DNA from: Euglena gracilis
Lineage: Eukaryota
Assembly: GCA_039621445.1 (NCBI GenBank)
Contig: CP154954.1
Coordinates: forward strand, 5,805,919 to 5,869,918
Direction of reading: 5' to 3'
DNA length: 64,000 nt
Part shown: positions 6,476-62,521 of the stretch, piece after piece
Layout of the letters: every line of letters begins with the position of its first letter
How positions within the stretch are numbered: position 1 is the first letter of the stretch
Position numbers and translations under genes: made by a program
Notes under the pieces: generated by a model
Database searches by the model: none
Told to the model about the DNA's origin: nothing
What the model saw: only the letters and a program-made list of their open reading frames with translations

Positions 6476-9400
6476 TCAGGAGCCGATGGTGCCGGAGTAG
6501 ACGCTTGCCGTCTGGGCGAAGCGGGCATACTGACCGCTGGGTCACGCATGACGCTCCGAGGGGTCGGCACTCGTTCCCGGGGTTGTTCAGACGGCCGTCG
6601 CCGAGCAGGTTCATCCTGTCCGACGAGGCGTGGCACTGTGGTCGTCACCGGAATCGGTGCTTCCACAGGTGCTGGCACTCCCAGAAACTCTGCCATTGTC
6701 TTCGGGATGGCAGGGACCCTGCGCGGTGTCAGTGGTCGTGGGGGTATCTCCTCCACTTCCATTTCGACATCCGGTCAATGAGGTTGATCCTCCACAACCG
6801 CTGGCGCAGGTGCTACGAGAGGTTCATCCTCCGATGTAGCCGGTGCGACAGATGGCCCTGTCGGCTGGGGTTCATCCCCTGATGGTGGTTGCACTGCTGT
6901 CGGAGATGGGGGTGAGGGAACGCCGACATCCGGCGTCTCCACGACCTCAGCGGCGGAGCTTGATGCTACGCCTCCACCTCGTGGCGTTAGTGCAGCAGCC
7001 ACGGCAGTAATGCCGGTGACTACGGCCCCGAGCACACGGCCTCCTAACGAGGTGCGTGCTGTGGGACTGGCAGGTTCTTCGAGGATATCCTCGACGACCA
7101 TACCAGTCACCTCGGCTGGAGGCTCAGCCGTTGGAACAGGCGTAGCAGCCACAGGTATATCCCCTGCGGGTGCTCCGTCTGGTCTAGGCTGTGCCGGAGC
7201 AGGCAGAGCAGCGTAGAGGATATCCTCCACGTTCTCACCTTCCTCCTCAGGAAGTTCCTGGTCTCCACCTACCGGTGGACAGACGCAAGCCGCCGCGGGA
7301 GCCGGGGAAACCGATCGTTCCCCTTCCGCTCGCGGGGCAGAGACGAAGGATACAGCCGTTCCTGTCGGAGACGGCGGCGCTGCCTCTAGAATGGTGACGG
7401 AGGGGCTGCGGTCGCGTTCCTCCCGCCGCGGAATCGCGGTGGTGGAAGCGACTGACGCCTCACGTCTCCTTCGCGCCAGAGGTTCATCCTCCGGGGCGAT
7501 GAAGGCGCGCAGATCCTCGGGCGAACGAGGATCGTCGGGGTGCCATCGGCATCCCTGGGCATCCGCCAGCCTGTAAAAGGCCAGCGTACTGCTGCTGGCG
7601 CTGTTGGGCCAGGGTGGCGGCTATGATGGCTGCACCCAGGCGTTGGCAGGCCTGTTCGGGCCCATGAAGCCGCGGTAACCCGTGTCTTCCCAGACCTCGA
7701 AAAAGCCCTCCTCGAACTCCTGAACGCATGCCAGAATCGGCATACGCTGTTCGAGGATGGCCTGCGGGTGACACATCAGCGGAAGGAATACCTCCCGGTC
7801 GAGGGTACCGCCAAACTGTCGCCGCAAATGTTCCTCCATGCTGATATCAGCCAGGTGCCAGTTGGGGCGCAGGTGGCCGAGAATCCGACGACGAGGACCC
7901 TCGATGGCGTCACCGTAATTCGGTGGCAGGCTTTCCATACCAGGCCTATCGTCCTGGGGGTCACGGAGATGTATATACACCTCCATGACATAGGTGGTCC
8001 AGGCTCGCCACCAGAACTGCTGCAGCATAAAAATACGCTGCTTGTGGACGCGGCGACTTTTGCCCTGGACATCCGGGGCGTCGCGGCACACATGCATAGG
8101 CATGCGGCGTCCCTTCTCCAGGCCCGGGTTATCCCGAGGCGGTGGAGGACTTCCGCGCACGCCGAATCCCCAGAAGTCGACAGGAAATTCCTGCCGGCAG
8201 TACTTACAGCAGAGGTCATACTTCTGCGGGTAAGCCAGGGAAACGCGCTTAACGCGGAAGGTGGAGCCGTAATGGCTCACCAGCCACACCTGGAGGTTGT
8301 TGCACCACAACACCTCGATCAGGCGTTCGATGTCGGGGTGTAGTGGGTAGAATTCCCACTGCACGCCGAGGGGTCCGACTGTATGAATACAGTCGAAGAT
8401 TGCCTTCAGCCTTCGGGCCAACAAACGCTGGTCCCGAAATCTCAACTGGTGCAGGTAACTGCGACCAGTGGAATCGCCGAAGGGACCCCAGTTCTGGCAG
8501 GGGTATCCCAGCCAAAACCAGAGCTCCCAGAAACCTGGCTGGGTATCCAGCAAGGGTCTGCCACCTTCACCTTCGAAGGCGTACAGATCTATCCCGTAAT
8601 GGAATAGTCTGACTCTGTTCTCGGTGTGGCGTAATACCACATCGATGACTGCTTGTGGAGGGGTGACGGGGCGGTTTCCTGCAACATGGTAATCATGCTG
8701 CATTCGCCAGCCTTCGTCCTCCAGCTCCTCCTTGAACCTGAGCATATGCTCAAAGTCCGAGAGGACTTCTGCTGGTTCCTCTTCCTCCTCACGTGCTGTT
8801 CCCTTACCTTTACCCTCACCCTTCCCTTTGCCGGCCACGCCTTTGCCTTCTCCCTTGCCTTTGCCCTCGGCCTTGCCTGTGTCCTTTCCCGTCTGACGAA
8901 TACCAGAGGGTCGGGCGCTCAGTGCCGCCGGAGTCGGTTCGGTTCCTTCCCATTCCATCTCTGGGGAGGGACCTGGCCGACCCGCTGCACGTCGCGGTGA
9001 CGGCGTGGCTGGGCGTTGGCTAGAAGTCTGGCGTGGGCTTGGCTTCGACGCAGGGGGTCGCGGCTCCTTCCATACCGGAGGGATCGGCGGTGGTATTGTG
9101 GCAACAGGACGGCTCATCGCCGCCTGTGCCTCTGCCGGTGGTCGTCCAGCCGGGGTGTCCTGGCTGTCTTCCACCTGCATTGCCACACCGCCTTCCGCGT
9201 CCCGTGGGCTGGGTCGCCTGGGCTGTGGGGTAAGGTTCTCCGTAGTCCTGTCGTGCTTCAGGGTGGCAGGTAATACTGCCACACCTGCCGGGGGCTCACC
9301 GTGTAATACCGGGGTTGCCACCCGCAGCTGTGGCTGGTACGGATGGTATGGGGTGTATCCACGGCCCTGAAGGGCAGCCAGAGAGGAATAATACCTCGTC

Positions 9401-10436
9401 CGGTGCTCTTCAGACGCGAATACTGGCTCCTGCAGGAAGTGTCGAGCAAGCTCATCCTGCTCGGTTCCCGAAGGTGCCATGTGGTAGTAGGGAGTCTCCT
9501 GCCGACGGGGGATATCCCCAGTCTGGACAGGAGCTGCACTGGGCGGTCGGGCTGCCACACGGTGGGGAGGTTCATCCTCCACCACCATGGGCTCCGCCTG
9601 CCGCCGTGGCTCAACGCCAGGGACAGGGGCGACCGGTGATGCCTGTGGCATCCTGTGCATGAACATGTGTTGGACGTACGCCTCAGGGGGCACGTCCTAC
9701 TGTCCGGCTGGGGGCACGCGTGCGCCGCGCGGGTAATCCGCGTGCGTCGCGTACTGCGAGACAAAGTGCTCCGCTGGCGGCTCGCGCGGCGGCATTCGCT
9801 GCGGCGAGGGCGGGCGAGCAAAAATTTTCGTCATCCCAGGTGGGACATGCACAGCCTCACCTACCGGTGGGGGCGTGTGCTCACGCATATGCACGGTGTG
9901 GGATCCCACCGGCGTCTGCGTTTGCAGCATGGGCGGCACATACACGCCCAGGTCCATCATTGTTCCGCCAGGCTCGAATTCGGAATCGGATGCCGACGAG
10001 AAATACCGTCTCCCCGTCATCAGGGCTTGACCACAGGGACACCACTGAGCCACCGGCGTGTTGACTACCACCAACAACTGAGCACAGTATGCATCCCAAA
10101 GGGCTTGCATAAAGGGCTCTGTTGGGGGGTGTGCGCACATACGCATCGCCCGCTCCAACGTCTACGTAGTGCGGAAGATCATCTCTCCCGCATACGGGGG
10201 CAGGCGCGATCTGCGCTGCGCTGGTGGCTGAGGTGCCGGCTGCTGGACGGCAGATGGATCTGGTACCGCATATGCGGACCGGCTACTGGTAGCTGCGGCG
10301 AATACCTGGGTTGAAACCCTCTCAGCATGTGGGCACCTGGAATCGGGGCCTCAGCATACTGAGGGTACTTGGGGTATGGCGCGCCAGGAGGCTGCGGCCA
10401 TGATGGACCTGGTCCAGGTCCGCGCCCAGGCAGCAG
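6476..10436 (-). pseudogene. ORF3 (large accessory protein downstream of pol) of copy B, C-terminally truncated
   Basis: ORFs 9697-10158, 7621-9693 and 6775-7230 share blocks with C and E ORF3 (LPPY-G...ALWD..C; GFWELWFWLGYPCQN; YPQ-Y-L-C--C---F--DFWGFG). Confidence 0.85.
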
Positions 10437-10632
10437 GATGCTACCCGAACGACGACGACAACCAAGGGTAACCTTGTTGTCAGTCGCTGTGAGTGCTGGT
10501 GCACTGAAAAAGGTAGGCTTCTATCTTAATCAAAAACTCTGCGAGAAAGATAGAGAAATAAGGAAGTGCAGGGGGGGGTATAAACGCGAAACATTCACAT
10601 AAAACACACGCATTTTCCAAAACGAAATCGTT

Positions 10633-25128: not shown

Positions 25129-25290
25129 GAACGCATGGGAAACCCATGTTGTTTTCTCTTCTTTTTATAATTGATTCTTATCATTCTTTCTTTCCGCAGA
25201 CTTTTTAGCAAATAATACTCAAGCGGTTACCCTTACACACCTTACAACCAACAACCCAAACATCCCACCGTACCGACCCCGGGCGGTATC

Positions 25291-28200
25291 ATGCTGCCCG
25301 GTGGAAGGGAGCCAGGCGGAGGACCGCCTTACCACCCCACCACTCACCCTCAAACTGACCAGTATGCGTACCGATACGGTACGCAGCCACCTACACGGAC
25401 TGCGACTCAGGGAAACCCTGAAGCCAGCAGCAGTAGCAGGATGACCCAGATGCCCGCGGAAGCGCGGCCATCTCAGCCATCAGGCTCTCGTCGCCTCCCA
25501 CCGTATGCGGGTGTGATGATCCACCGCACGGCGGAGACGATGAGCCGGGTTATGCGTATGAGCGCAAACCCGGCACCAGACCAACTCACCCAGGCATTGT
25601 GGGATGACCACTGCCGTAAAATGTTGACCATCGCGAATACCCCTCCGGCCCTGTGGTGTATGTGCGCCCAGGCGACGATGACCGGTCTTGTGTATTACAC
25701 CGACCCGGACGCGTCGGGATTCGCGGCGGACATTACCGTGCGTGACCTGGGCGTGGAAGTCCCGCCACAGGTAGCACGGCAGGTACCACCAGTTGGCACT
25801 TACACCGCACATTTTCGTGCTCACTCCCCCGGATTACCCGAGGAAGAGACAGTGGAAGCACCTGTCCGGAGTGAACACCCACGTGTGAAAGAAAGTATTT
25901 TTGGATCCCCTGAGCGCAAGCCCCGGCGGGATTATCCTGCACAGGAGCCTGTGTCTCAGTACACCGTCTCTGGGGATTACCCCCGGGAGGCGCCAATGCC
26001 ACGGGATCAGTACGTGTATCCACCTCAACCCCACCCAACCATACCTGACCCTATCCCACGACGTCCTGCGGAGGGAAACCCTCCCCCGACGTCTGAGGCG
26101 ACCCGAAGCGCTCGTCCGCGGGAAGCCGCGGCAGCACCTCGTGCGGCACCAGTTCCCCCGGCACGGGATGAACCCGTTAACCCGTGGACTTGCCGGCCGT
26201 TCGAGACAGAGGAGGAGCGTCAACGGTATGAATATGCTGTGACGATCCAACGACAAATCGCACGTCGCCCCCCTGTTTCCGCTGGCCAGGGATACCCTGC
26301 CCGGGCGGAAATGACACGGGAAGAGCGCCAGCAGTATGATGCTGCTGTGTCAGCTCTCACAGGCGTCCCAGCTCCATCACGATCAAGTCAACCAGCGCGA
26401 CAGCAGGACGTTGCTGTGGCGGAAGCGTACCAGCACGACCCACAAGCTCTGCCGCCGGCAAGCGTGACCGCGGCCCGGAAAATCTGACGCCGCAGCCACA
26501 GCGCCGCTCGCCGAGGTCGGAAAATCCGCCCGCGACGATGCACGTCGACGCTGAGGAGGAAGCTCCACCAGCGCCGGACGTGACGGCAGAACGGGCACGT
26601 CGGGAAACCCGACCATCCCTAGTCGCACCGGCTTACTCGAATCGTGGTGACGCTGAGCAGGAATTTGCTCGAACGCCAAGCACGGAATCCGTGACTTACC
26701 CAGTGTTTACGCCAGAAGACCCAGAATAGTGGGATTACTGGGCGACATTCGAATGGCTGTCTAACACAAAGGTTAAGGGTAAAGGCAAGGGCAAGGGTAA
26801 GGGGAAAGGAAAAGGCCAGGAGAAAGGTGGGAAAGCCCCACCTGGCAAAGGCGGAAAAGCCGCTTGGCCAACTCCAGGTAAAGGCGGAAAATCTGCCGGA
26901 CCCCTAGCAGGCAAGGGCGGAAAAGCCGCCGAACCTTCGAAAACGAAGGACGATGACTTTACTGTAGTTTTCACCTACCTGCAGGAGATTTGGCCGAAAA
27001 TCGACGAAGATCTCCGACAGTTTACACACGCAAGCAACGTGATCCACCGACCACCGGATGCGGTGCTCGAAGTGGTGCAGAATCGTATATACGATCACTG
27101 CAAACGTTTTTCCTACAGTTCAGAACTTTATGCGTTTGAGGGATACCCTCATTCGGATGAAATAGTCCTGGACCGGATGTCCGGTTTCTGGGAGCTGTGG
27201 TTCTGGTTGGGATACCCCTGCCAGAACTTCGGCATCTTTACCGACCAACACGGTCATACGTATGCCGACTGTTTGGGAACATGCCTGACGACGAAACGTT
27301 CGTAGCACAGTTGAAGGAAATCTTCAACCACATGTATTCCGTCGGAGCACTGGGAATCCAGTGGAAATATTACCCCCTGCCGGAGAAACTCCTTGCGCAG
27401 GCTGCGGTAATGTTCACACACAACCTCCAAGTATACTTGGACAGCATGTATGGCACGCTGTTCAAAATGCTGGACATCGACCTCGCGTACCCCCAGCGGT
27501 ACAAACTGGAATGCCAGTTTTGCAAGGAAGTTCACATTGCTGACTTCTGGGGTTTCGGAGAACGCGGAAAACCGCCTCCGACTGCCGAAAGTGCCGGCAG
27601 CCAGCCGACCAGGAGATTCCTCCTGCATCAGTGCCGGAATCCCCAGATTGGGACACAAGATCGAAAGGTGCTGAAACGGCACCGGCAGAAAATATTTCTG
27701 CTACAACAGTACCGGCACAGGGCGTGGATTACCTACGTCCTGGAAGTCTACATTTATTTCCTGGAACAGATGACCACTGATGTCGATATCCACAGGAAGT
27801 GGTTACCTCGGGGATACACCGAGGTGGACGCCAGACCTCATGACTCAGACCGACGCAGGATGAACCTGCGGCCGGAATGGGAGCAGGCAGAAAGTGGCCT
27901 GCGGGATCACCTGGACACCTAGTTCGGGGATATCCTCGACTGGAAGGAGTTCGAACCTTTCTTCGCAGCACGCGAGGTAAGTCACACTCGGTATGCGGTC
28001 CCATTGCCCGCTTTCCTGGAAGACACAGGAGAGCAGGGTATGGGATGGAACCTTCGATCGCAGTGGGAAGACCTCTGCCTGATCAACGAGGACGAGCCGC
28101 AACCTCCACTCGGAAGCTGGGTGAGGGCGTCGTGGCCGCCTCCTTACCCCAACTCTGACAGGAGTGAAAGTATAAGCTTTTACCGCCTGTCCGACGCACA

Positions 28201-30720
28201 AGGGTGCTACAGAAGCGGAAAGGACCCGCGCACTGCAACACAACTCCACACAGAGGACTACCCTCCGGAAGCGGAGGAGGAGGAAGAAACGGTCCCTATG
28301 GCCGAGGATGAACCTCAGCCAGTGGAACCCCCGGCACGGGAAACCCGTAGCCCATCGGTCGTGATGCTGGACACTGTGGCAGAAACTGCCCAGCGCCCAG
28401 GATCGCCGACAGGTGAAATGACGCCTGTCCCACTGTCGCCAGCCTCACTGGGTACGACGGGCAGACCGACCCCTCCGCGGGAAAACCCGCCGGAGACGGT
28501 GCCCCACACGCCTGAGGTATTACGCCTCAAGCTCCCTGTTCCCGGGGAAACCCCGTTAACAGAGGAGCCAACCGAGGAGCCCACTTCAGGTGAGGAACGA
28601 CGCACCTTGCTAGGCGGACGCGTACTCGGTGGTTTGCGGTCACTCATCGCAGTTGTCACCCCACGTGGCACAGCGGCCAGTTCTTCCACAGCTGCGGCGG
28701 AAGCTGCCCAGCCGACAGAAGACACACATGACACAACAGCCATGGTGGAGGATGAACCTCCCCCAGCGGCGGCGCCACCGCCGGTGTCGGAAGCGACACG
28801 GACGGAAGGCGAACAGACAACAATGGCAGTGGAGACAACAACAACCGTGTCGGTACAGGATGAACCTGTATCAGCACCGGTAGCGCCAGCCGAGGCACGG
28901 GATGAACCCGCACCTCAGCGCACAGCCATAGCCACTGCACCAAAGCGTCCGGGCACACTGACACCGGCGCCTGAAAAGCAGGCCAAGCGGACGTCCATGC
29001 CCCCACCACAGGCTCAACCAGTACGAAGCGTGCCGGCCGAGCCTACACCCACACCATCCCCCACGGCTGCCTCTGGGAAACCCACGGAAGCCGCGAGGGA
29101 ACGCGTAGGACGGCCCCCAGCCCGGGAAACCCCTGCTGAAGGTCAACGACGCTCGGTGTCGGGGAGAAGACCCCCGTCCCAAGCGTCACCACGCACCTGG
29201 GCAAGCAAGCGCGACGCCGATCGGCGGCCCTCGGATTCTCCGGAAACCGGAAGCCCGAAGGCCCCGGCAAAATCAAAGCCGGGCGCCGCACCTTGTAAGC
29301 CCGCACCGAGATCTGGTGATCAGCCCCCACCGAAAGGCGGTGGTGGTACTGGCGGCCAGAGTGCTGCATCCTCCTCTCGGGGATTAACCTCGGGACAAGG
29401 ATTCACGCACGTCACATCATCCGGCTATGGGAAAACCTCACAGCCGAAACCTTCGTCAAAGGGGCAGGGAAAATCCCGCGCCTCAACAGCCGAGACACCT
29501 TCGGAAGACGAAGTTATCATCGACTGGAACGCGGTCAATCAGGATGATCCTGAGATTCATGACCTGAAACCCAGGTACATGATGATCGACCACAAACTGA
29601 GGACACAGCAATGCCCCAACCGGTGGATTGAGCCACTGTTCTGTCAGGGCCGAAAATGGTCCTTTGATCAGAACGTGACCTGGAATTATTACAATTCCAG
29701 ATCTCCCCGTGTTTTGGCCCAATACTTCGGTGAGGAATTCCTCATCGAAAAGACAACGGAAAACCGTTTTGTGTGGCTTTGCACTGTATGCCACAAGATG
29801 TATAACAGTGCACCTGACCTGGGATTACCCCTCGTCCATGTGTGCAACCCTGTGGATCGGAAATCCTTCCATAAGGATGTATACATCCCTAACTGTGCCG
29901 CCTTGGTATGCGCCAAGTGCGTGGACAGTTGGACCCACAAGCACAATTTTAGCTACACCGAGCGAGACGGTACGAATGTACCGATACTCTGCGTCAACTG
30001 CCTTCGAGGTACCTTCTGGCACACTGCGGAAGGCGCAGTACCCGCAATCGTGCCAAGTGCCGAGAAGCCACTGGAGGAATACTCCACCTTGAACAAAAAG
30101 TTCAAGGACTTTTCAAGTATGCCAACCTCAAACTCGACGACTACCGCCACACCGGAATGGCCCGTGGGTGGCAGATCGACGGTGGGGCGATACGCCTCGC
30201 CGCTGAGGAGGCAGGGGTAAGATTACCTTACCTCTGGGAGACAGCAGACAGGGAAAAGATACTTTTCCGCCTGTTCCAAAACCAGGACCGAAACGGTCGC
30301 TGGTGTCTGCCACAATGGCCACCCGAAAACCACGGGATGACCTGGAAAGACTGGCTTGGGGCCGTATTACGACCCCATACAGTCCGCGCAGAATGTGCGT
30401 ATCACATGCCGATTGACTTCCACCCAGGGAATGCCCCGCAGGTGTCAGCCAATCACCCAAGGATGAACTACTTCATCTGGCCAGCAACTCTGCCCAGGAA
30501 ATTCTGGGAGTAGCTGCAGTGGTTCCTCGCGGAAAGAGCGAGTGTAACCAAGCACACAGTCCCCGAAGGATGGGTTCGGGACTGGGTGGCACCTGATTTC
30601 GAATACGAATCGCCAGAAACCTGGCTCGTAGATAGGCCACCACCACCACAATTCCGGATGGTCCTTGTGGAAGATCCCTTGGATTCCCGCCATGATTATT
30701 GGCGGCTGGAACGGATGTAG
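25291..30720 (+). pseudogene. ORF3 of C, ~1810 codons, unknown non-env accessory protein with three conserved folded regions
   Basis: ORFs 25291-26487, 27039-27305, 27197-27922, 28004-30220 and 30157-30513, plus continuation to ...LVEDPLDSRHDYWRLERM* (TAG 30718-30720); homologous to ORF3 of D, B and E. Confidence 0.85.
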
Positions 30721-31622: not shown

Positions 31623-31632
31623 GGGAGAGGGA
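31623..31632 (+). promoter_or_regulatory. Polypurine tract of C
   Basis: GGGAGAGGGA immediately before the 3' LTR. Confidence 0.8.
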
Positions 31633-32067
31633 TGTGTACCAGGCACGGCCCAGCTCTGTAGGATATCTGCAGAGTGGGTTCTGTGACGGTCGCACCACTG
31701 TGGAAATCCACAGCTGGTAAGATCGTAGCAGACCCTTCTGGGATCTGCCCCTGGACACGTCAGCACTTTTCTCTCCTTCCCCCACAGGTGGTATTCTTCA
31801 CTGTCATTCTTCCAAAGTTTGACCATTGGTTTTGTCAGAGGGAAAAACCCTCGGAACATTCGAACTTGATCTCAGAAGAAACTTCTGAGTCTTTGCTTTG
31901 TGCTTTGCTTCTTGGGGAATTAGGAAGAAAAGGGGAAAACCACTTTTCGTTACTCCAAATACTTTTCCCTACCATAAGTAATAAGTAGGCTGCGCACCAA
32001 GGCGAAAGCGAAAGGCTTTTACAGAAAGTCCCAAAAAGGGGAAAAGGGAAAGCTTTGGACGTACACT
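31633..32067 (+). repeat. 3' LTR of C
   Basis: Direct repeat of 15207-15641, followed by TSD GTATC. Confidence 0.96.
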
Positions 32068-39430: not shown

Positions 39431-39760
39431 CAAGGGGGGGATGCCCAAGCCGCTTCTGCGGTGGGTTTTTTCCGTACAAGGGGCGGACGCCCTAGCCGCT
39501 TCGGCGGTACCCCCCCCCACAACTGGGTTTTCGAACCCAAACCGCATTAGGGGTGCCCCCCCCCTACAACAAGCCGCTTCGGCGGTGCCCCCCCCCCCTC
39601 CAAGGGTCTTTGGACCCAAGCCGCGTCGGCGGTGACCCCCCCCTCCAAGGGTCTTCGGACCCAAGCCGCTTTGGCAGTGCCCCCCCCCCCCCCCGCTCCA
39701 AGGGTCTTCGGACCCAAGCCGCTTCGGCGGTCCCCCCCCCAAGGGTCTTCGGACCCAGGC
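39431..39760. repeat. Minisatellite, about 8 units of ~40-50 bp (CAAGGGTCTTCGGACCCAAGCCGCTTCGGCGGT-polyC)
   Basis: Directly visible tandem units, degenerate on the left and homogeneous on the right. Confidence 0.9.
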
Positions 39761-42700
39761 TGTAGTTTAGCCTTAGGCTTTCTGCCTTTCTCTTTCCGCT
39801 GTGGCGGAGGGGGCGTTCTGCAGGCGATTTTGGAGCAGGTTTGGCAGTTGGTGCGGTGGTATGTGGTACGTCAGGAGCTGTTGGTACCACCCGTTCAGGT
39901 GTGTGTACCACTACGGGTGTTGTCACCACTTCGGGTGTTTGGACGTCAGAAGCAGAACCAGCAGCGTCTGCTGTCAGTGCTGTGGTGGAAGCCGTAGCTT
40001 CTTGTGTGGGTTCTTCGCCAAGTCCCGTGTCACGGGGACTTCGCGTTGAAGAGGAAGACCTCGATCGCCCCATTGCAACCATCGGGGCTACGCCACTCCG
40101 GACGCTTCCGAGGACACGTTCTGCAGCGCGTCCGACTTGTGGTGGTATGAGTATGAAGTCGTCTGGATCTGGATATCCACGGCTGTGAATACCGAGTGGG
40201 TATTCTCGACGTATTTGTTCACGCTCTGCACGTAGTGCTTCCATTTCTTCGTCAGTGATTGCTCGGTCACCTTCCGCACGTGCGGAGGTGAGTGGAAGCG
40301 TGTCTGACGAAGGCACTGCGGCCATTGTAGAGTCTACAGACACTTCGGCCATCGTAGGTGCTGTAGGCTCTTCGGCCACTGGAAGTTCTGTAAGTGCGTT
40401 GGGTTCCACGTCTGGTAATGGTGTTTGTGGTCTTGTCTGAGCAGGCATTGTAGCTGGCGTTTCGGCCCTTAGAGAATTTTGTACGTCGGCATCTCCGGGT
40501 TCAGACTCCACGGATGCGGAGGAGGCGGAGCGTGTACTGTGTTCATTGTCTGTACCTTCCTCCATTTCCTCATCGCTGGATGACGCAGAAGAGGAAACGG
40601 ACGAAGAGTCTTAAGAGTGTACGGGAGTGTGTTCCACAGACATTGTAGGTGTAGGTGGAGGTTGTGTCAAACGTTCTTCCGAACGTTTGGTTGCAGGATT
40701 CGCTGCTGCTTTGGCTGTTGTCGTTGTACATGATGCAGCCGTTGGAGGTTGTTCAACCGTAGACTGCGCTGCCTCGGACTCCGCCGGCTGTGGTTCAGGG
40801 AGTTTTATACGTGGTCGCACACGGAAGTTTTGCCATCCGACAAATTTGTTTCCTCCCGATCCGCGAGGAAGCCAGTCCAGTATTGGGATGGCCAACCTAT
40901 CCTTATTTGTACGTTTGCCCTTGAAAAATGGGGCAAAGTCCTCTCTTCGGAGGGTTTCGCCAAACAGGCGTTTGATATACTTCCGTTTTCCGTCTTCGTC
41001 CATGCAGGTCGAAGAGGGAGGTATTCTTGTGGGAGTGGTTGTTTCGGGTTGAATAAATTGTAGATTTCCAGAGCATAGCATACCCATGCTCTCCATTGGA
41101 ACGTCTGCATGTGCAGAAGCATTTGTCGGTGGTTTCGTCTGGCGTATCCGATTTCCCTGACTTAGAGGGGATTGTGGCAAATGTGTCCGAGTAGTCTTCG
41201 TTGTTGTTGGGCTTCCGCCAATTCTCGTTGGTGGGGCTGCACCCTTGGTGCGTTTGGGCGGTCGGTTGTCACACCGCGTACCCCAAAGCCCCAGAAGTCC
41301 ACGGGGAACTTGTGGAGGCAGTGGGTGCACCAAACGACGAATCTTTGTGGGTATGTCAGGTCGATTCCGACCACTTGGAAGTGGGGGCCATAGTGTTCGT
41401 TGAAGAAAATTTGTTAGTTGTAACAGAACATTTCGTGTGTCACCAGTTGTATTTCCTTTGCAAGTGGGAATACTTCCCATTGTATGCCGTGTGGTCCGAT
41501 TTCGCGGATGTTGTCGAACATTGTCTTCAGTGTGTCAAGGGATGACTCCCATCCGTATTGTAGTTTTGGATGTGGCAAGTAGTGTGCCTTGCTCGCGGGC
41601 ATTGGAAATGAAACGAAGTTCAAGCAATGGAATCCGAGACAGGAAAGTGGTTGCCAGAAACCCGGCAATTTGTCGATGCAATCCTGGCTTTCGTAACACG
41701 AAATTGTACCATCGAAGAAAAAGCCACGGGCTTTTTCCTTGTAGAGTTTGACCATGTGGTGATGTACTTCAGGAGCTACAAACCAAGGGTGTTGTTCCTC
41801 ATAGTACTGGTGCAAAATTTTATCACATCCGTCTGAGATGCAGAACAGATGGTCAACCATGAATTGTACGTCCAGGTCGTAACGCGGTTGTGAGCCTTCG
41901 CTCTTTCCTTTGCCTTTCTGGCCTTTCTGTCCTTTTGCGGCTTCGCGCTCTTGTTCATTCCAACGGTATGCACCATCTTTTCGGAATGCTCGTGTTTTTC
42001 TTCACATTGTAACGGTTACACCAGCGGTGTAATGTCCAGCAATGTCATGGGATGGTTTGTCTGGATGCATTTGGTGATATATTTCGTATAAAGATCGTTG
42101 TACGTTGGGCGGGATCGGCAGTCATCGCTTTCCTGACGATCACGTTGCACCTGCACGCTTTGTGGCTCGTCGTCCAAACGACGACGTTGTGTGTCTGGCG
42201 TTGGACGTGTTTGTGGTGGTGTTGCAAACTCCGGTCCACGCGGACGTTTGCGCGCGTCAACGTTGTATGGTTTTGCTGGGGCGGTCAAATGTTGTAGAGC
42301 TTCCTTGTAGGTGGCGCGTTGTGCTGGCGACTCAAACCTGGGTTGACCCGAGAAAGGTTGTCCCGGTTCAACAGGTGGTTGTGTCTGTCCAGCCGAAGCC
42401 GGTGGTGAAGGTGTCGTAACAGGAGGTGCTCGAACAGGAATTGTAGTTTTTGCGTGTGATTTTGTACGTGCCGACCGCGCGGCTTGAGCAGGGGGTCCTG
42501 TTCTTTGTATAGGTACAGGTTGGTTTGAACCTGCTGCTGATGCGGCAGGCTGAATAGATGTTGATTGTGCAGTCGAAACTGCTTGTACAGGCTTTGTTTG
42601 TGGTGCCGGAGTAGGTTGAGCTACCAGCGGCACAAGGTGCGACACCGAAGCGAGTTGTTCCATTGGACCAGGTTGATGTGGTGGTGCATTCACACGCAAA

Positions 42701-44018
42701 ACTTCGGGTAGTGCCCAGGTGGGTATACCGAAAATTTTGGAGTTTGGACCAATGCCATCCATTATCACTCCCTTTACGTTGATGGCTCCCAAATGGGATC
42801 CAAGTTCGTAAATTTTGTCACGGGGAAGGTATTGTTCGCCTTTGTTTGTGTAAGCGAAATCCAGAGATTGTGGCACTCGTTCATAGTGAATATTGTCCTC
42901 TCCGGGACGCAGGGGGTTTTCTTCGACAACCCGTATCGCTGTCGGTTCCAGCAGCGGTACGGCGGGGGTTGTCGGTGGTTGTGGTTGAGATTGTACAGAT
43001 GGTTGAGTTTGTACGGGTTGTGGTGGTTGGGGTGCTTGAGGTGGTTCGTCTGTTTCCATGGTATACTGCGGCTCAGGGTCTGCCGTTGAATACTCGTCGT
43101 AAGGCTCTTCGGCCATGTTGTCGGTATAATTTTCATCGTATGGCTCTTCGGCCTCCATAGCGTACTGTGATGGCATACTAGCCTCCCAGTTCCGTGCAGG
43201 CGGCATGCGTGGGGGAGAAGAAAAACGTTGTTGTGGTAAGTATACTGGTTCTTGCATTTGGACTTCACCCATCTCACTTTCTGTGAGTCCAGGAGTATAG
43301 CGGCGCACGTGTTCCACGTAAGCACCCACAGGATGCACTCCGCGGAGCACAGGTGGGACCAGGACTCCCAGATCCCGGAGAGTTACATTGTCTGGAAATA
43401 CGGATTCTCCGGGTTGGAATAAGATTCTACCTGCTATCGTCCTCTGGGACCACATGTCTCAGGTGGCGATAGGTTTGTTGGCGATTGCAAGCAGTTGTCG
43501 GCAGTACGAATCCCACATCACTCGGATGAAGGGATCCGGTCTGTCCTCTGTGCACATGCGCAGAGCGTTACGAATTGTATCTGTTGATGCCGTTGTCAGT
43601 TCGCCCATGTACTTGGGGAACCGAGGCATCACAAGACCGCCGCAAAAGCAGCGCGTTGGCTACTGCTACTTGCCAGATCGTATCTCCTTGGGGGCCGCGG
43701 TTGCGGCACCGCAAACTGTTCATAGGCAGATTCCGTTTGTTGTGGAACCATTGTTTGAGATTGTAAGCCACCAAGTGTAGTTTGTTCTGGAGCAACATGC
43801 AGAACCGCATGTTGAGTCACAGGGGAATTTGCCACTACGGGCCTTGCTGCCGAAGCAGCTTGTACATGCCGAACGGGGACTTGCCCTCCACGAGGGAGTG
43901 CAAGTCCTCGTCCTCCCGAAGGAGGTTGTGGGTGAGGGGGTCCTCCCGTACGAGGTTGTCCAGGGGGAACATACGGTTGGGAGGATGGGGGACCAGGTCC
44001 CTTTCCTCCAGTGTCCAT
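39761..44018 (-). pseudogene. ORF3 of E (divergent; C-terminal Cys domain missing)
   Basis: ATG 44018 MDTGGKGPGP; DKLPGFWQPLSCLGFHCLNF, GPHGIQWEVFPL and LTYPQRFVVWCTHCLHKFPVDFWGFGVRG match the B, C and D core. Confidence 0.82.
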
Positions 44019-44337
44019 CTTAAAAAAGAGCAGATAGTAGCAAGTGCTGAGCTGTGGGGAAACAGAGAAATAAGGCATTGTACGGTGACATTGGACGCAT
44101 GCGAGCATATGTGTGCACACACAAAATTTTTGTATGTTTGCACAAATTGTAAAATCAAAATGGTAGCACCAAGTGTAAAAATGTATCGCTCAAAACCATA
44201 GTCATTTGACGAAAAGTCCTTCGGTAGGGACAAAATGGTTTGGCATCCGCCCGTTGTTTATTTTGGCAGCCGCCCATTATACGTTTTGTCGAAAGTCCAC
44301 GCTATGACAACTCTTGGACATCTTTGTACATCCTCTC

Positions 44338-44952: not shown

Positions 44953-47531
44953 TCTTCCTCCCAGGGCTTTGCCCGATTTCCCCTTTGGACCAGGCATTCT
45001 GGCCACAGGGATTTCGGACACAGACCTGGTCTGTGGGAGGTGCACCCTGGCGCATCCACGGGGGCCCTTTCCGTCGCACAGGGGTCCACTCAAAGGGAGG
45101 GGGGGGGGAAAGGAGGGGACCCAAAATGCCAAAAACGCGCAAAATGGTTTCACCTATTCTGCGGTGGCTTATGGGTATATAGTATATTATAGCCCACTGG
45201 GGAAAATGGGGCTGGCAGGTTTCCTTGCCAAGCAAACCCATCCACCCAGTTTGGGTGTGCCCAAGGCACTTGGGGTTGGGTCCATGGGCATTCCAGGAAA
45301 ACCTATGGGGAGGGTGTGGAAGGAGAGGGCCTCTGACCAGTCAAACCTGGGCAGGGCGCATGGCCAGTCAAACCTGACCACGCAAAAGGAAATCCTACTA
45401 TACGAAACCAACTGCCGGGGACAGCATTTGCCCCGGGGGGAGAGTAGAGAGGAGTGGGGGGTTGGCTTAGGCCAGAAAAGTTGTGCTGTCTGGCAGCCTT
45501 ATGGCCTCAAACGGCCGAGAAGAAAATAAAGGGAAAGGAAAGAGGCCGTCGGCCCTGTGCGCTGCGTGTAGCACGCCCGCGAGAGGGGAGGGGAGAGGGG
45601 TGTGCATGCATGCGCACGGAATCCTGCACATGGCAGCATCCCGGTGGGAACTTACTAGCGGCGAATACCGCAAAGGGTCTTCGAAGGGGTTGTTCGGGCG
45701 AATACCCAAAAAGGGTGTCAGGCGAATACCTGACGAGGGTTCTGAAAGCCGCCGCATTGGCGCTCACAGACACCTCACCTGCCTTTATCGGCTGGACGTT
45801 CGCGCACCTCACGCCAGTAGTCGTGTTGGGGGTCCCCTAATGGGTCCTCAACCAACTCCAGTTGGCGTGTGGAACGCGGCGTAGCTGATTCACTCCGAAT
45901 GGTGTTGAGCTCCGGATCGTTGGCACCAAAGGAAGGGGTCTCCCAGTCCTTGATCCAATTATCCGGCAGCTTCTCCCTGGTACGTTCAGCATGATGCTGA
46001 AGATACCGTTGGAGCTGCTCCCAGAAAATTGTGGGCAGCATCACCGGCCAGATGATGTAATTCATCTGGGGGTGATTCGCAGGCACCTGCGGGGGCATCC
46101 CCGGGGTCTGCTTGAAGTTGATGTCATGTATCCACCTCGCTGTCCGAGCTCTTGCGGTATGGCGCCGTAATACAGCCGCCAACCAACCTCTGAAGTCCAC
46201 CAAATCGTGTTCTTCAGGAGGCCACAGTGGCAAGGCGTATCCGCCATGCTGACGCTTGGAGAACAGGGGGTAAACCTGTGTCTCCCAGTCGCCATCGGTT
46301 CAGAGGTAAGGCATTCTTACCTTGGCGTGTTCCTCGACGGCGAGGCGCATTGCCCCAGCGTTGATCTGGAACTCACGGGCCATTCCCGTGTGGCGGTAGC
46401 TTTCTACCTTGCGGAAGTCGGAGTGCTTCAGGCGGCCTTCCACCTGTTCGTACTCCTTCTTCCACTTCTCCATTGTCTCCCAGTGGTGGGGGACAATGGT
46501 GGTGACTGCTGCATCAGCAGTCTGCACGAACTTGGCCCCTATACAGTTGATGCACAAGGCAGGGATATCCCTGTCGTGAGCATTCTCACTGTAGGAGTAG
46601 TTCAAGCTGTGCTTCGAGGCGCTCAGGCACTCGCCACATACGAGCGCCACACAGTTCGGCACATATGCCCTGTGATGGAACCACGAGGATTGCACCTGCC
46701 GCTTGCACACATGCACAAGCGGTTGGTTGTGCCGCACATGGTGGCACACGGTGCACGTCCAGGCAAAGGACGTGCCGTGCTGGAAATCCAACACGCAGTC
46801 CTCACAAAGTACTGTTCCAGTACTCTGGGTGAGCGCCTATTCCAGAATGTCCAGGTATGTTCCGGGACATAGTGGAAAGGTTCTCCTCGGACGAAGAGGG
46901 GCTGAATCCATCGATTCAGTGACCCTTTCTGGTGCCTAATAGCAGCCAGTTTCTTCGTCCTCTCTTCCACGGTGCCTAGTCTGGTCAGGATATCCTGAGT
47001 CCAGAGCTGGGCATCCGCAGACACAGGAGGTGAAGCAGGTTCGTCCTGCTCCTCATCCGTCGATCCGGCGGAAGACTGGGCCTGTCGACCACGAGCCTTA
47101 CCTTTCGGTTTGCTCTGGCCGTACCCGGACGATGCAACGGCCGAATAGTCGTGCATTGTCGTAGGGCCTTTCGGCTGTCATCCAGTCTGACCTCCAGCGC
47201 CACCTTTCGGTGGTGGTTTCCCATCACCGCCTTTGGCAGGGGTCTTACAGGGTGCAGCACCCGGTTTGCCTCCTTTCGGCTTCGCACTCCCGGAATCAGG
47301 AGGCGATGCCTGCGGCTTACTCCTGGTATCAGGAGCCGATGGTGACGGAGTAGACGCTTGCCGTCTGGGCGAAGCGGGCATGATGGCCGCTGCGTCACGC
47401 GTGACGCTCCGAGGAGTGGGCACTCGTTCCTGGGGTTGTTCAGTCTGCTGCCGCCGAGCAGGTTCATCCCGTCCGACGGGGCGTGGCACTGTGGTCGTTA
47501 CCGGAATCGGTGCTTCCACAGGTGCTGATAC

Positions 47532-49204
47532 TGTGTGCGGCGCCAGGTTTAAAATTTAAAAACCCAAAATTGAATTAGGAGGCGCCTATCCTAATTACAA
47601 AATCTCTATTTTTGCAGCTGCAACTGTCCTGAACTCTTTGACTCAAGGAAGGCCTGAACGCCAGATGAAGATTTCAAGTCTTGGTTTGTGCTATGCTGAA
47701 GGAAAGTGAGTGCTGCTGGAAAGGAAAAGTTTTCAAGTTTGACCCCCAGTGGGTACAAGGAGAAACTCAGAAAACACAAAGAGTTCAATTGTTGCTCAAG
47801 GCCTGGAGGCCAAAAGTCAGCCAGTTTGGCCAGAAGAAATGGACATTTCAGAAAGTGTCAAGTCAGGGATTGTCAATGATGAAAAAATCTGGGAAAATCA
47901 ATGCTGCAGAAAACTTGGCTGGAAATCTGAGCTGTATGCAGTAAAATTTCAGTATGTTGTTGAAATCATTGACAGATTGTAATTGAAGACCCCCAACATT
48001 GATGCATTCAGTTTGGAAGAAAGCAAGATATTCAAATGCTGGTGGGGACCTGGGTCACAATTTGTGGAAGATTCCTTCACAGTGAAGTGGACACATTCCA
48101 TTGTTGGATTGTTGTGGTCAAGTCCCCCCTTCAGCCTCATTGCAAATGTCATCCGCAAGCTGAAGAAGGATCATGGTCATGCGGTGTTGGTTGTCCCAAA
48201 GTGGGTTACTGCCCCCTGGTGGGAAGATCTTCAAGACATTGTTGTCAGAATGCTGGAGTATCCTTGTGCCACGCCGTTGTTTGAGTTGGTTGGGGCAGGG
48301 TTCACAGTCCCCCCCACAAAATGGCCAGTACAAGTGGCATTTGTCTGTGGAAGGATAAGTCAATGTTTCAAATTGGCAAAAGTTCTCAATCCAATTTCAA
48401 GTTCAGCAAAAAGGAGAATGAGGAGGCAAAAGATGAAAAGAGGGTCCTCCCCACAAGTGCACCTTAGGCTCCAGGTCGGCACAGGGGACAGCCCAAATTT
48501 CAGTGATTCAAGTGGTGAAGTCTCTTTGCAATGATTGTGTGTTCAATCTGAGCCCCCTCCTTGCGAAGTGGGCTTTGAGTTTGTGCTGGCCAGTGGCCCA
48601 GGCCCAGGGCCCAGGTGGGAGAACCGCTACAAGGGGGCCTACCCACAGGCCCTGGGACTCCCCCTGGCAGCCCCCCACTGGCCCTCTCATCCCAGGAGTG
48701 CCCTGGGGAAGGTTGGGAGGGGGACCAACCTTTCCCAGGGTGCCCCAAGGGCTCTGGGGTGGGCTGGTGGCCCTGTGGCCCCCCTACTTGTGCTGGACAT
48801 TGTTGGACTAAATCCCTGTCAGCTGTATTATATCCCTGACTCAGCGTTCAAAAATTTAAAAAAAACAAATTTCAGCCGCCCCCCCCCCCCAAAAAAAAGG
48901 CCAATTTTGGCGCCGCAAAAAATTGCCGAAGGCAGTGGGCACGAAGTGTCCAGAGAGGGGTGTGTGGGCGGCGCCAGGTTTAAAATTTAAAAACCCAAAA
49001 TTGAATTGGGAGGCGCCTATCCTAATTACAAAATTTCTGTTTTTGCAGCTGCAACTGTCCTGAACTCTTTGACTCAAGGAAGGCCTGAGCGCATGAAGAT
49101 TTCAAGTCTTGGTTTGTGCTATGCTGAAGGAAAGTGAGTGCTGCTGGAAAGGAAAAGTTTTCAAGTTTGACCACCAGTGGGTACAAGGAGACACTCAGAA
49201 AACA
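47532..49204 (+). mobile_element. Non-autonomous LTR-like mini-element G (TRIM-like, 1.67 kb) carrying a methyltransferase-like ORF
   Basis: ~245-bp direct repeats 47532-47776 and ~48963-49204 (TGTG...AACA); 4-bp TSD ATAC at 47528-47531 and 49205-49208; purine run AGAGAGGGG before the right repeat; empty site visible in B at ~6670. Confidence 0.88.
47749..48534 (+). pseudogene. Dam-like DNA amino-methyltransferase domain (one in-frame TAA at 47980-47982)
   Basis: ELYAVKFQYVVEII..PNIDAFS..WWGPGSQFVEDSFTVKW..LLWSSPPFSLIANVIRKLKKDHGHAVLVVPKWVTAPWW, with a motif IV-like SPPF. Confidence 0.78.
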
Positions 49205-52200
49205 ATACACCCGGAAACTCTCCCATTGTCCGTGGGACGGCAGGGATCCTGCGCGGTGTCGGTGGTCGTGGGGGTATTTCTTCCACTTCCATTTTGACAT
49301 CCGGTCGAGGAGGTTGATCCTCCACAACCGCTGGCGCAGGTGCTACGGGAGGTTGATCCTCCGTTGTAGCCGTTGCGACAGATGTCTCTGTCGGTTGGGG
49401 TTCATCCCCTGAAGATGGTTGCGCTGCTGCCGGAGGTGGGGGTGCCGGGACACCGATATCCGGCGTCTCCACAACCTCAGTGGCAGAGCTTGATGCTATG
49501 CCTCCACCTCGTGGCGTTAGTGCAGAAGCCACGGCAGTAATGCCAGTGACGACGGCGCCGAGCACACGGCCTCCTAATGAGGTGCGTGCTGTGGGGCTGG
49601 CAGGTTCTTCGAGGGTATCCTCGATGACCATACCAGTCACCTCAGCTTCAGGCTCAGCCGCCGGGAGAGGCGTTGCAGCCACAGGTATATCCCCTGTGGG
49701 TGCTTCGTCTGGCCGAGGCTGTGCTGGGGCAGGCAGATCAGCGTAGAGGATAGCCTCCACGTTCTCGCCTTCCTCCTGAGGGAGTTCCTCGTCTCCACCT
49801 GCCGGTGGACAGACGGGAGCCGCGGCCGCGGGGGCCGGGGAGACTGATCGTTCCCCTGCCGCCCGTGGGGCAGAGACGAAGGATACAGCCGTCCCTGTCG
49901 GAGACAGCGGCGCTGCCTCCAGGATAGTGACGGAGGGGCTGCGGTCGCGATCCTCTCGCCGCGGAATCGCGGTGGTGGAAGCGACTGACTCCTCACGTCT
50001 CCTTCGCGCCAGAGGTTCATCCTCCGGGGCGATGAAGGCGCGCAGATCCTCGGGCGAACGCGGATCGTCGGGGTGCCATCGGCATCCCTGAGCATCCGCC
50101 AGCCTGTAAAAGGCCAGCGTACTGCTGCGGGGCTGTTGGGCCAGGGTGGCGGCCATGATGGCTGCACCCAAGCGTTGGCAGGCCTTTTTGGGCCCAGAAC
50201 ACCGCCGTAGCGCGTGTTTTCCCAGACGTCGAAAACGCCCTCCTCGAACTCCTGAACGCATGCCAGAATCGGCATACGCTGTTCGAGGATGGCCTCCGGG
50301 TGACACATCAGCGGGAGGAGTACCTCCCGGTCGAGGGTACCGCCAAACTGTCGCCGCAAATGTTCCTCCATGTTGATATCAGCCAGGTGCCAGTTGGGGT
50401 GCAGGTGGCCGAGAATCCGACGACAAGGGCCCTCGATGGCGTCACCGTAATTCGGTGGCAGGCTTTCCATACCAGGCCTATCGTCCTGGGGGTCACGGAG
50501 ATGTATATACACCTCCATGACATAGGTGGTCCAGGCTCGCCACCAGAACTGCTGCAGCATAAAAATACGCTGCTTGTGGACGCGGCGACTTTTGCCCTGG
50601 ACATCCGGGGCGTCGCGGCACACATGCATAAGCATGCGGCGTCCCATCTCCAGGCCCGGGTTTTCCCGAGGCGGTGGAGGACTTCCGCGCACGCCTAATC
50701 CCCAGAAGTCGACAGGAAATTCCTGCCGGCAGTACTTACAACAGAGGTCATACCTCTGCAAGCCAGGGAAATGCGCTTAACGCGGAAGGTGGAGCCGTAA
50801 TGGCTCACCAGCCACACCTGGAGGTTGTTGCACCACAACACCTCGATCAGGCGTTCGATGTCGGGGTGTAGTGGGTAGAATTCCTACTGCACGCCGAGGG
50901 GTCTGACTCTATGAATACAGTCGTAGATTGCCTTCAGCCTTCGGGCCAACACACGCTGGTCCCGAAATCTCAACTGGTGCAGGTAACTGCGACCAGTGGA
51001 GTCGCTGAAGAGACCCCAGTTCAGGCAGGGGTATCCCAGCCAAAACAAGAGCTCCCAGAAACCCGGCTGGGCATCCAGCAAAGGTCTGCCACCTTCACCT
51101 TCGAAGGCTTACAGATCTCTTCCGTAATGGAATAGTCTGACTCTGTTCTCGGTGTGGCGTAATACCACATCGATGACTGCTTGTGGAGGGGTGACGGGGC
51201 GGTTTCCTGCAATATGGTAACCATGCTGCATTCGCCAGCCTTCGTCCTCCAGCTCCTCCTTGCACCTGAGCATACGCTCAAAGTCCGAGAGGACTTCTGC
51301 TGGTTCCTCTTCCTCCTCACGTGCTGTTCCCTTACCTTTACCCTCACCCTTCCCTTTGCCGGCCACGCCTTTGCCTTCTCCCTTGCCTTTGCCCTCAGCC
51401 CAGCCTGTGTCCTTTCCCGTCTGGGGAATACCAGAGGGTCGGGCGCTCGGTGCCGCCGGAGTCGGTTCGGTTCCTTCCTATTCCATCTCTGGGGAGGGAC
51501 CTGGCCGACCCGCTGCACGTCGCGGTGACGGCGTGGCTGGGGGTTGGCTAGGAGTCTGGCGTGGGCTTGGCTTCGGCGCAGGTGGTCGCGGCTCCTTCCA
51601 TACCGGAGGAATCGGCGGTGGTATTGTGGCAACAGGACGGCTCATCGCCACCTCTGCCTCTGCCGGTGGTTTTCCAGCCGGGGTTACCTGGCTGGCTTCC
51701 ACCTGCATCGCCACACCGCCTTCCGCGTCCCGTGGGCTGGGTCGCCTGGGCTGTGGGGTAAGGTTCTCCGTAGTCCTGTCGCGCTTCAGGGTGGCAGGTA
51801 ATACTGCCACACCTGCCGGGGGCTCGCCGGGTAATACCGGGGTTGCCACCCGCAGCTGCGGCTGGTACGGATGGCATGGGGTGTATCCACGGCCTGAAGG
51901 GCAGCCAGAGAGGAGTAATACCTCGACCGGTGCTCTTCAGACACGAATACTGGCTCCTGCAGGAAGTGCCGAGCAAGCTCATCCTGCTCGGTTTCCGGAG
52001 GTGCCATGTGATAGTAGGGAGTCTCCTGCCGACGGGGGATATCCCCAGTCTGGACCGGAGCTGCACTGGGCGGTCGGGCTGCCACACGGTGGGGAGGTTC
52101 ATCCTCCACCACTATGGGCTCCGCCTGCCGCCGTGGCTCAACGCCAGGGACAGGGGCGACCGGTGATGCCTGTGGCATCCAGTGCATGAACATGTGTTGA

Positions 52201-62510: not shown

Positions 62511-62521
62511 CTCTGCTACCA
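62511..62521 (-). promoter_or_regulatory. tRNA-iMet PBS of D
   Basis: TGGTAGCAGAG on the - strand abutting the 5' LTR; degenerate second copy at ~62430-62456. Confidence 0.85.

Follow-up and report, generated by a model that had tools for sequence, protein, structure and literature searches.

A conserved candidate third gene downstream of pol in giant Ty3/gypsy chromoviruses of Euglena gracilis

The window analysed here, a 64-kb stretch of Euglena gracilis DNA, consists almost wholly of nested giant Ty3/gypsy chromoviruses, five of which (elements A to E) are distinguished (Table 1). Downstream of pol, element C carries a long coding region on the same strand, open reading frame 3 (ORF3), which is the subject of this report. 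The long terminal repeats (LTRs) of C, at 15207-15641 and 31633-32067, are 435 bp long and 98.2% identical, and a 5-bp target duplication, GTATC, is found at both ends of the insertion. The 5' LTR is followed by a primer-binding-site (PBS)-like sequence starting with TGG, TGGTAGCAGA, and the purine tract GGGAGAGGGA lies just before the 3' LTR. Pfam matches on one strand occur in the order RVT_1 (1.7e-23), Integrase_H2C2, rve, SH3_Tf2-1 and Chromo (6.8e-11). The LTRs, target duplication, PBS-like site and purine tract, together with a domain order that places the chromodomain at the C-terminus of integrase, identify C as a Ty3/gypsy chromovirus. Across the elements of the window, Pfam detected RVT_1, RNase H, Integrase_H2C2, rve, SH3_Tf2-1, Chromo and zf-CCHC domains, the RT_RNaseH match coming from the sister copy A. 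Elements B and E form one subfamily (87-97% nucleotide identity in repeat families; ~90-92% over one compared stretch), C and A a second, and D a third.

Table 1. Coordinates of the nested elements and of the ORF3 features in the window.
Feature	Position	Strand	Remarks
Element A (fragment)	1-6474		gag-pol protein 83-98% identical to that of C
Element B	5' half 32068 to ~37290; 3' half 6475-15206	-	split by C; cut at ~6475 by A
Element C	15207-32067	+	complete, 16,861 bp; sits inside element B
Element D	~37300-44636 and 62838-64000		split by E
Element E	44637-62837		316-bp LTRs, 95.6% identical; sits in the integrase of element D
pol stop (TGA) of C	25126-25128	+	after the chromodomain
Polypyrimidine tract ending in CAG	25171..25199	+	candidate 3' splice acceptor, or spliced leader (SL) trans-splice acceptor, for ORF3 mRNA
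ORF3 of C	25291 (ATG) to 30718-30720 (TAG)	+	5.4 kb, ~1810 codons if read through
ORF3 pieces of C	25216-26487, 26730-27305, 27161-27922, 27923-30220, 29953-30510, 30514-30717	+	
N-domain of C	25492..25836	+	RLPPYAG ... ALWD..C..L..ANTP.A.WC.C ... DLGV.VPP ... PVG...H.R
K/G-rich basic low-complexity tract	26769..26954	+	directly upstream of the central domain
Central domain of C	26955..28156	+	frameshift near 27251-27257; TAG 27920
Small motif LLGGRVLG...TPRG	28607..28669	+	within acidic/Pro-rich linker; in C, B, E and D
C-terminal domain of C	29618..30717	+	Cys-rich core 29774-30001
ORF3 of B	6475..10539	-	3' end lost to element A; acceptor-like CAG 10539
ORF3 of E	45775..53069	-	~97% nucleotide identical to B where compared; Cys-rich core 46761->46543
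ORF3 of D	39567..44073	-	ATG 44018; most divergent and most decayed copy

The reading frame of ORF3 in C is disrupted by three frameshifts (its successive pieces lie in frames 1, 0, 2, 2, 1 and 1) and by in-frame TAG codons at 27920 and 30511, both of which align with glutamine in B/E. A tblastn search with five stop-to-stop pieces revealed further copies in the window, all on the minus strand, at 10206->6502 (B), 52732->46018 (E) and 43623->40785 (D); ORF3 is present in all four of the elements whose 3' half falls in the window. The longest open stretches span 765 codons in C (27923-30220) and 691 codons in B (9696->7624), in DNA of 57-60% GC, and the latter holds the only unbroken central domain (8769->7624). 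Frameshifts and a single in-frame TGA break the copy in E, which also contains ~1.7 kb of DNA (47528-49206) that is additional to the sequence of B. The plus strand of this insert (47995-48285) encodes a stretch that is 28% identical to the Dam-like part of the C pol, and the insert is probably a fragment of another Dam-carrying element. Because gag-pol of the same copies is broken to an equal degree, the breakage reflects the age of the copies and not the gene. An earlier note on this DNA had described a giant ORF of ~1800 codons after the chromodomain. The sense-strand coding region is real, its conservation going well past what chance would give, and it is found in C, B/D and E, but it corresponds to the read-through of broken copies and not to one open frame.

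Three islands of alignable sequence are separated by linkers rich in Pro, Ala, Glu and Thr (Pro 12-17%) that cannot be aligned between subfamilies, as the earlier note had described apart from the abundance of Ala. The N-domain is common to the three subfamilies, with identities of 80/170 (47%) between C and B, 64/145 (44%) between C and E, and 64/166 (39%) between C and D, although the LPPY.G motif given for it is not invariant and reads RFPKYMG in D. A late-domain motif of the PPxY/LPxY type (LPPY, PPPY) was rejected as a family feature, D having FPKY and B/E having PPPW at the second site. The K/G-rich tract that precedes the central domain in C has counterparts in B (8889->8794), in D (41941->41894) and in the distant relatives P0005, P0009 and P0010. 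The central domain contains the motifs GFWELWFWLGYPCQN, G.LG.QW..YPL, YPQ.Y..C..C......DFWGFG.RG, H.C, Q....RAW..Y..E.Y and LRP.W. All of the motifs listed for this island by the earlier note are visible. The island is common to the three subfamilies, the pieces of C being 40 and 42% and those of D 24, 44 and 42% identical to B. The LLGGRVLG...TPRG motif is the most hydrophobic stretch, without consistent transmembrane character.

The C-terminal domain displays the motifs NRWI.PLF...RSPRVL.QYFGE, YRHTGMAR...PYLW, ANHP.MNY.IWP..LP..FWE and LVEDPL..HDYW. In its core, ~75 residues contain eight Cys and two to three His that are conserved, with the spacing C-x2-C-x10-15-H-x-C-x16-17-C-x4-C-x2-C-x22-23-C-x2-C. 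This domain was seen in C and E alone, where it is 38-53% identical; in the D tail (40600->37300) it was not matched, and B is cut off before that region, at ~6475. The Cys-rich island had been assigned to three subfamilies, and it is therefore retained for two. Beyond the features first listed, the comparison adds further small islands (GGRVLG; NRWI.PLF...RSPRVL.QYFGE), the K/G-rich tracts before the folded islands and a splice-acceptor-like signal before the gene.

An exhaustive HMMER profile search of 1.84 billion cluster representatives yielded 13 relatives of the central domain at E<=0.001, two of them at E<=1e-10. Eight of the 13 are distant (18-25% identical to B; within P0002 to P0013) and come from other sources. 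They keep the motifs FW..F.GY..N, GGI.W, YPQ.Y..C..CG.....DFWG..R and H.C, and three of them also have K/G-rich tracts upstream. Ten of the relatives were looked up, and each is an unnamed cluster with one or two members, from ENA or Logan assemblies. The central domain defines a small protein family, as yet without a name, with members outside the host as well.

Searches for a known family gave no assignment. No Pfam family scored above its cut-off in 15 ORF3 pieces and nine relatives; a MucBP_2 match in P0009 (E 0.048) was discarded as it lies under the Pfam cut-off. ORF3 had no matches in PHROGs or NCBIfam, and PDB profile searches with two family alignments returned none (for the central domain, 0 PDB chains at E<=10). 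For the N-domain nothing was found under E 0.018 in the PDB profile search, the sole matches being uL14 (E 0.018) and USP13 (E 1.3). Word-based homology searches returned no match for the central domain among proteins of near length and none for the N-domain among proteins of 29-315 aa; for the C-terminal domain, at near lengths, the sole match was P0016, discussed below. Among JGI metagenome contigs, none matched a degenerate DNA pattern encoding YPQ.Y...C..C......DFWG. A search of the published literature, supplements and figures lying outside it, revealed no description of an ORF3 gene. The earlier statement that the protein is not recognisable from any family stands: no strong match emerged from Pfam, PHROGs, NCBIfam or PDB profiles, nor, for the central-domain model, from Foldseek or VIA. 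As judged from these comparisons, ORF3 would belong to a new family, none having been described.

Non-synonymous (dN) and synonymous (dS) divergences between C and B/E were estimated by the Nei-Gojobori method. In pol, dN is 0.07-0.13 and dS 0.7-1.1, whereas the ORF3 islands display dN of 0.37-0.57 and dS of 1.05-1.7, a ratio of ~0.3; in gag the ratio is 0.29-0.50. In all island high-scoring segment pairs (HSPs) with an estimable dS, dN is below dS. For the same pairs of elements, identity is 78-85% in pol, compared with 24-53% in the ORF3 islands. These values suggest that the islands are under purifying selection roughly like that on gag and evolve four to five times faster than pol, dS being saturated. 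The earlier note had proposed a selected protein and named dN/dS per domain as a check; on these values the proposal has rough support. The retention of the central motifs by the relatives at 18-25% identity supports it independently.

A transcript corresponding to part of ORF3 is available. P0016 (eukprot:EG_transcript_25142), a 230-aa protein of the Euglena gracilis transcriptome, is 95% identical and covers the first half of the C-terminal domain. Names of the EG_transcript type occur in 10 papers, and the eight of these that were listed all deal with Euglena gracilis or euglenozoans, the transcriptome paper PMC6366073 among them. Because P0016 stays in a single frame across the frameshift of copy E, intact copies of ORF3 must exist and be transcribed. 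Contigs of one run recorded as RNA (X18) and of three runs guessed to be RNA extend along the whole element and are 90-99% alike, which is compatible with transcription but is not proof of it. Word depths of 4599 and 2450 (X19 and X20, two of the runs guessed to be RNA) were observed in the bin 26380-26938 only, with loose ends at 26769-26816. This bin holds the (GGCAAAGGC)-type K/G repeat, and the peak is probably due to cross-matching to abundant transcripts with the same simple repeat and not to expression.

ORF3 begins ~35-170 nt downstream of the pol stop. The spacer between the two (~100-350 nt) is AT/pyrimidine-rich and non-coding, varies in length by subfamily, and contains a pyrimidine tract ending in CAG in all three subfamilies. 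When an acceptor-like site is defined as at least 21 pyrimidines in 25 positions, one spacer base and then CAG, only nine such sites are found on both strands of the window (128 kb), and C (25199), B (10539) and E (53069) each have one of them precisely at the pol/ORF3 junction. The signal of D is slightly weaker (20/25 at 44073-44052), and its ATG follows 34 nt downstream. Both LTRs of C (15333-15361 and 31759-31787) also contain a strong polypyrimidine-CAG site, likewise among the nine. Conventional cis-splicing, non-conventional cis-splicing and trans-splicing are described for E. gracilis (PMC6366073). The presence of this rare signal at the pol/ORF3 junction in a host that trans-splices suggests that ORF3 may be expressed from a spliced or trans-spliced subgenomic mRNA. 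A candidate donor, CAG|GTAATA, lies at ~15690 in the leader of C; the conserved CAG|GTA(A/T)TA could be a cis donor, but an uncertain one, since the same sequence belongs to a repeated PBS-like unit. Behind the 5' LTR, the leader contains two to three repeats of the LTR end together with the PBS-like site (…CTACCAGGTA(A/T)TACACTTGGTAGCAGA…; 15642-15740, 62520->62400 and 36990->36840). Within this unit CTACCA and TGGTAG could pair, and a GT usable as a splice donor is also present.

On these observations we favour, with a probability of roughly 0.6, the reading that ORF3 represents a true third gene in giant (17-18 kb) Ty3/gypsy chromoviruses, which probably belong to the recently described DAM-LTR group of Euglena gracilis. 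Its domain order is common to the three subfamilies, and we regard it as a real and separate accessory gene, distinct from env. ORF3 would be translated from its own subgenomic mRNA, made at the polypyrimidine-CAG acceptor just downstream of pol, which could be used either by cis-splicing from the leader or by addition of a spliced leader in this trans-splicing host. The predicted product, of ~1,800 residues, would consist mostly of disordered Pro/Ala/Glu/Thr linkers, with three folded islands: the N-domain, a central region of ~330-380 aa with C-x2-C...H-x-C, and a C-terminal region of ~370 aa with the eight-Cys cluster. Lys/Gly-rich basic tracts would precede the central and C-terminal islands. 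The Cys and His patterns suggest zinc sites in the central (C-x2-C ... H-x-C) and C-terminal (eight Cys and conserved His) domains. Given this composition, these patterns and the company of the gene, namely a Dam-like domain and a chromodomain, the product may serve in the nucleus as a scaffold, binding nucleic acid or chromatin and acting with those two domains in targeting or in escape from silencing. This functional assignment is tentative, and we rate it clearly below even odds.

Several observations weigh against the third-gene reading or limit it. None of the ORF3 copies in the window is intact, so that a present-day function in this genome is only inferred. The saturation of dS makes the ratio of ~0.3 a rough one, and the close pair B and E (dS ~0.05) is uninformative, its ratios in ORF3 frames (0.36-0.83) being no better than those of pol (0.15-0.91). 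Carry-over of DNA into the RNA runs is possible, and assembled contigs cannot reveal transcript ends; among the contig rows listed, neither a joint between the leader and the 25199 acceptor nor a loose end at that place was found, which is uninformative either way for such contigs. The ATG of C is absent from B and E, which have ATC CTG instead, and stops occur in all frames right after their first CAG. The structural prediction described below is confident over ~95 residues of the central domain only and failed for the C-terminal domain (mean pLDDT 36.7), and zinc binding, nuclear location and chromatin binding are predictions.

It could be argued that ORF3 is decaying baggage, a sequence captured from the host or from another element and passively carried, whose similarity between subfamilies reflects common descent and not selection. 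The four broken copies out of four, the B versus E ratios near 1 in places and a non-synonymous divergence four to five times that of pol would agree with such an origin. Against it, the islands align at 39-53% despite saturated synonymous sites and keep invariant Trp, Cys and aromatic residues while the linkers are unalignable, dN is the smaller value in each island HSP for which dS could be estimated, and the relatives at 18-25% identity, from other sources, retain the motifs. The frame of the transcript-derived P0016 is intact where E is shifted, and the equal breakage of gag-pol points to copy age; passive carriage is accordingly judged improbable. The location of ORF3 on the same strand and close to pol would also suit a sequence that is no separate gene but extends the Pol polyprotein at its C-terminus, through readthrough of the stop codon or through frameshifting. 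The non-coding character of the AT/pyrimidine-rich spacer, its differing length between subfamilies, the acceptor-like signal that it holds and the stops in all three frames just after the first CAG in B and E make this extension very improbable. The position after pol and the acceptor-like signal equally recall env genes, so that a membrane or secreted product was also considered, for example an envelope-like protein of the kind found in errantiviruses and in plant Athila/Tat elements. The best 19-residue Kyte-Doolittle window, at the same motif in each copy, scores 1.60 in B and 1.46 in E (GGRVLGAVVTGITAV...), a borderline hydrophobic stretch, but an Arg breaks it in C (1.32), the D sequence is not hydrophobic there (0.79), and no transmembrane stretch common to the ORF3 copies was found on this scale. 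The N-termini are Pro/Gly-rich and not hydrophobic (no dedicated signal-peptide predictor was run), Pfam revealed no env or fusion family, and K/G-rich and acidic disordered tracts predominate. The view of the earlier note that ORF3 is not env-like is thus upheld, and we give a membrane protein equally little weight as a Pol extension.

A further alternative concerns the nature of the central domain, which may derive from the core of a C5 cytosine DNA methyltransferase, highly diverged and probably inactive, its target-recognition region being replaced by a zinc ribbon. GYPCQ would then represent motif IV, with a strand that ends in Glu and a hairpin containing PQ after it, and ORF3 would be a cryptic third epigenetic module related to the DNA methyltransferase (DNMT) of the 'EpiLTR' elements of Euglena. 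By eye, WFWLGYPCQNWG resembles the catalytic motif IV. When the central domain of B was used as the query in a search by language-model features, the four rows listed (ranks 1, 2, 3 and 5 of 30; recognition value 2407) are PF00145 DNA_methylase clusters, in which PF00145 occurs in 97-100% of members of three clusters and in 14% of one, with scores of 0.89, 0.86, 0.85 and 0.85; scores below 0.9 with 140/256 shared features are, however, in the range of chance matches or distant relatives. When the family core was compared by hhalign with nine authentic C5 methyltransferases, namely Dcm of E. coli and eight enzymes from phages, the best local alignment paired WFWLGYPCQNWGP with VLLAGFPCQPFSL. 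The Euglena-only alignment scored 28.0 (P 0.005), above 100/100 column-shuffled nulls and above unrelated real families (9-21), but it pairs another segment (LWCNNLQ with the ENV region) than the motif-IV match, so that the two mappings conflict. For the whole family the hhalign P is 0.34 and the probability 0.2%; the corresponding scores were reached by 2/100 column-shuffled nulls for the whole family and by 0/100 for the Euglena-only alignment, and integrase and reverse transcriptase (RT) alignments score 21 against the same methyltransferase profile. In an hmmsearch with the profile of these nine sequences, the best match had E 0.019 and 4.4 bits. PF00145 matches 0/18 family members at E<=5, the profile finds no PDB chain as stated above, and methyltransferases are absent among the Foldseek and VIA matches listed. 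PCQ is found only in C and B/E, D having HCL and the eight distant relatives having no Cys there, and an FxGxG-type S-adenosylmethionine (SAM) motif is not visible in the central domain. The order helix, strand, long helix and hairpin and the spacings of ~48 and ~43 residues between the three motifs would fit the C5-methyltransferase layout. Some chromodomain-bearing DAM-LTRs of Euglena are reported to carry a DNMT (bioRxiv 10.64898/2026.05.21.726589). Taken together, a methyltransferase origin is considered unlikely, though less so than the alternatives of the preceding paragraph.

We further analyzed the central domain by structure prediction. The AlphaFold2 (AF2) model of the intact B domain, computed with an 18-sequence alignment, has a mean pLDDT of 57, with values of ~90 for residues 110-205. 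This confident core comprises a helix, a hairpin, a long helix and a three-stranded sheet that bears the C-x2-C. A Foldseek search of PDB and BFVD with the model revealed nothing at E<=0.001, and VIA-align against 48,161 chains gave a best Z of 7.0, with long-helix matches only. Compared with C5 DNA methyltransferases (PF00145), the domain has in common a motif-IV-like G-[FY]-P-C-Q-x-[FW] in two ORF3 subfamilies and a feature similarity of 0.85-0.89; it differs in failing Pfam, PDB profile and fold searches, in a catalytic Cys that is not family-wide and in the absence of a SAM glycine motif. For the C-terminal part, the nearest neighbours in the feature search were zf-RING_2, zf-C3HC4 and PHD (0.76-0.79), which are leads only and weaker still than the methyltransferase lead. 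The core resembles RING/PHD cross-brace fingers in its eight conserved Cys and two to three His in ~75 residues, but its ligand spacing does not fit their consensus, and Pfam detected no zinc finger in the C-terminal domain at E<=1. A combined scenario can be formulated in which ORF3 mRNA is SL trans-spliced at the polypyrimidine-CAG, the central domain is a relic C5-methyltransferase core with a zinc ribbon, and the C-terminal Cys cluster is a new cross-brace-like finger. ORF3 would then be a third chromatin module in a transposon-encoded epigenetic toolkit and not a structural gene. This conjunction is somewhat less likely than the methyltransferase origin taken by itself.

Env and env-like third ORFs are known in Ty3/gypsy elements, in errantiviruses and in plant Athila/Tat. 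ORF3 is likewise a third gene after pol, plausibly expressed from a spliced subgenomic RNA. It differs from them in being three to four times longer and mostly disordered, and in having neither a signal peptide-like N-terminus nor a shared transmembrane stretch or fusion-family match.

The DAM-LTR and 'EpiLTR' elements of Euglena gracilis are described as chromodomain-bearing, Dam-carrying LTR elements, a subset of which has a DNMT (bioRxiv 10.64898/2026.05.21.726589). The window elements share with DAM-LTRs the Ty3/gypsy order, a chromodomain at the C-terminus and the same likely host, and in their pol a weakly Dam-like stretch precedes RT. In C, a weak match to Dam (N6-adenine methyltransferase, PF05869) lies between protease and RT at 21515-21745 (aa 315-391 of frame 20573-23041), with E 0.0019 (18.3 bits), and the sister copies match as well; the best value among 50 other ORFs is 0.00088. 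Both values are under the curated cut-off of 28.1 bits, and the threshold of the preprint is E 1e-5, which qualifies the assignment to DAM-LTRs. In the passages of the preprint examined, no gene downstream of pol is mentioned, though its figures and supplements may show the architecture. Since PF00145 had zero matches among 75 protein queries scanned from the window, some of which overlap, its copies are not EpiLTRs by that criterion.

Other LTR retrotransposons enlarged by lineage-specific coding sequence after pol include the plant Retand elements, described as having long post-pol regions with extra ORFs (PMC11963269), and those of bdelloid rotifers, described as having captured extra ORFs (PMC5408684). 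ORF3 differs from these, on the descriptions and not by sequence comparison, in its conservation across subfamilies and in its relatives outside the host.

The gag region of C (15916-18697) is very long, with ~1,350 codons up to protease, which is unusual for a Ty3/gypsy gag, and it has coiled-coil-type Pfam matches (NPV_P10, 1.6e-08; Laminin_II; ATG17_like). At 18793 and 19106 the contigs of all four mapped runs are one base short at each place, and therefore at least two of the frameshifts in the gag of C are either specific to that copy or due to errors of assembly. In a gag-proximal frame (19082-19969), dN exceeds dS in the comparisons with 59181->58336 and 33538->32693 (0.43/0.30 and 0.34/0.23), which suggests that the wrong frame is annotated, that frames overlap or that the stretch is non-coding in that frame. 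Rfam and tRNA scans of the window returned 0 matches.

The genome of E. gracilis is reported as 2.37 Gb (PMC11252322), and ORF3 accounts for about one third of a 17-kb element in it, conserved and without a recognisable family.

A third gene is rarely kept by LTR retrotransposons, and one that is kept, such as env or a gene with domains related to silencing, usually reveals how the element handles its host. Should ORF3 act on chromatin or on silencing, it would add to the picture given in the 2026 preprint, in which the same group of elements stacks epigenetic domains. If ORF3 is expressed through the trans-splicing of the host, this would represent an apparently unreported route to a subgenomic retroelement mRNA, a point on which no literature search was made.

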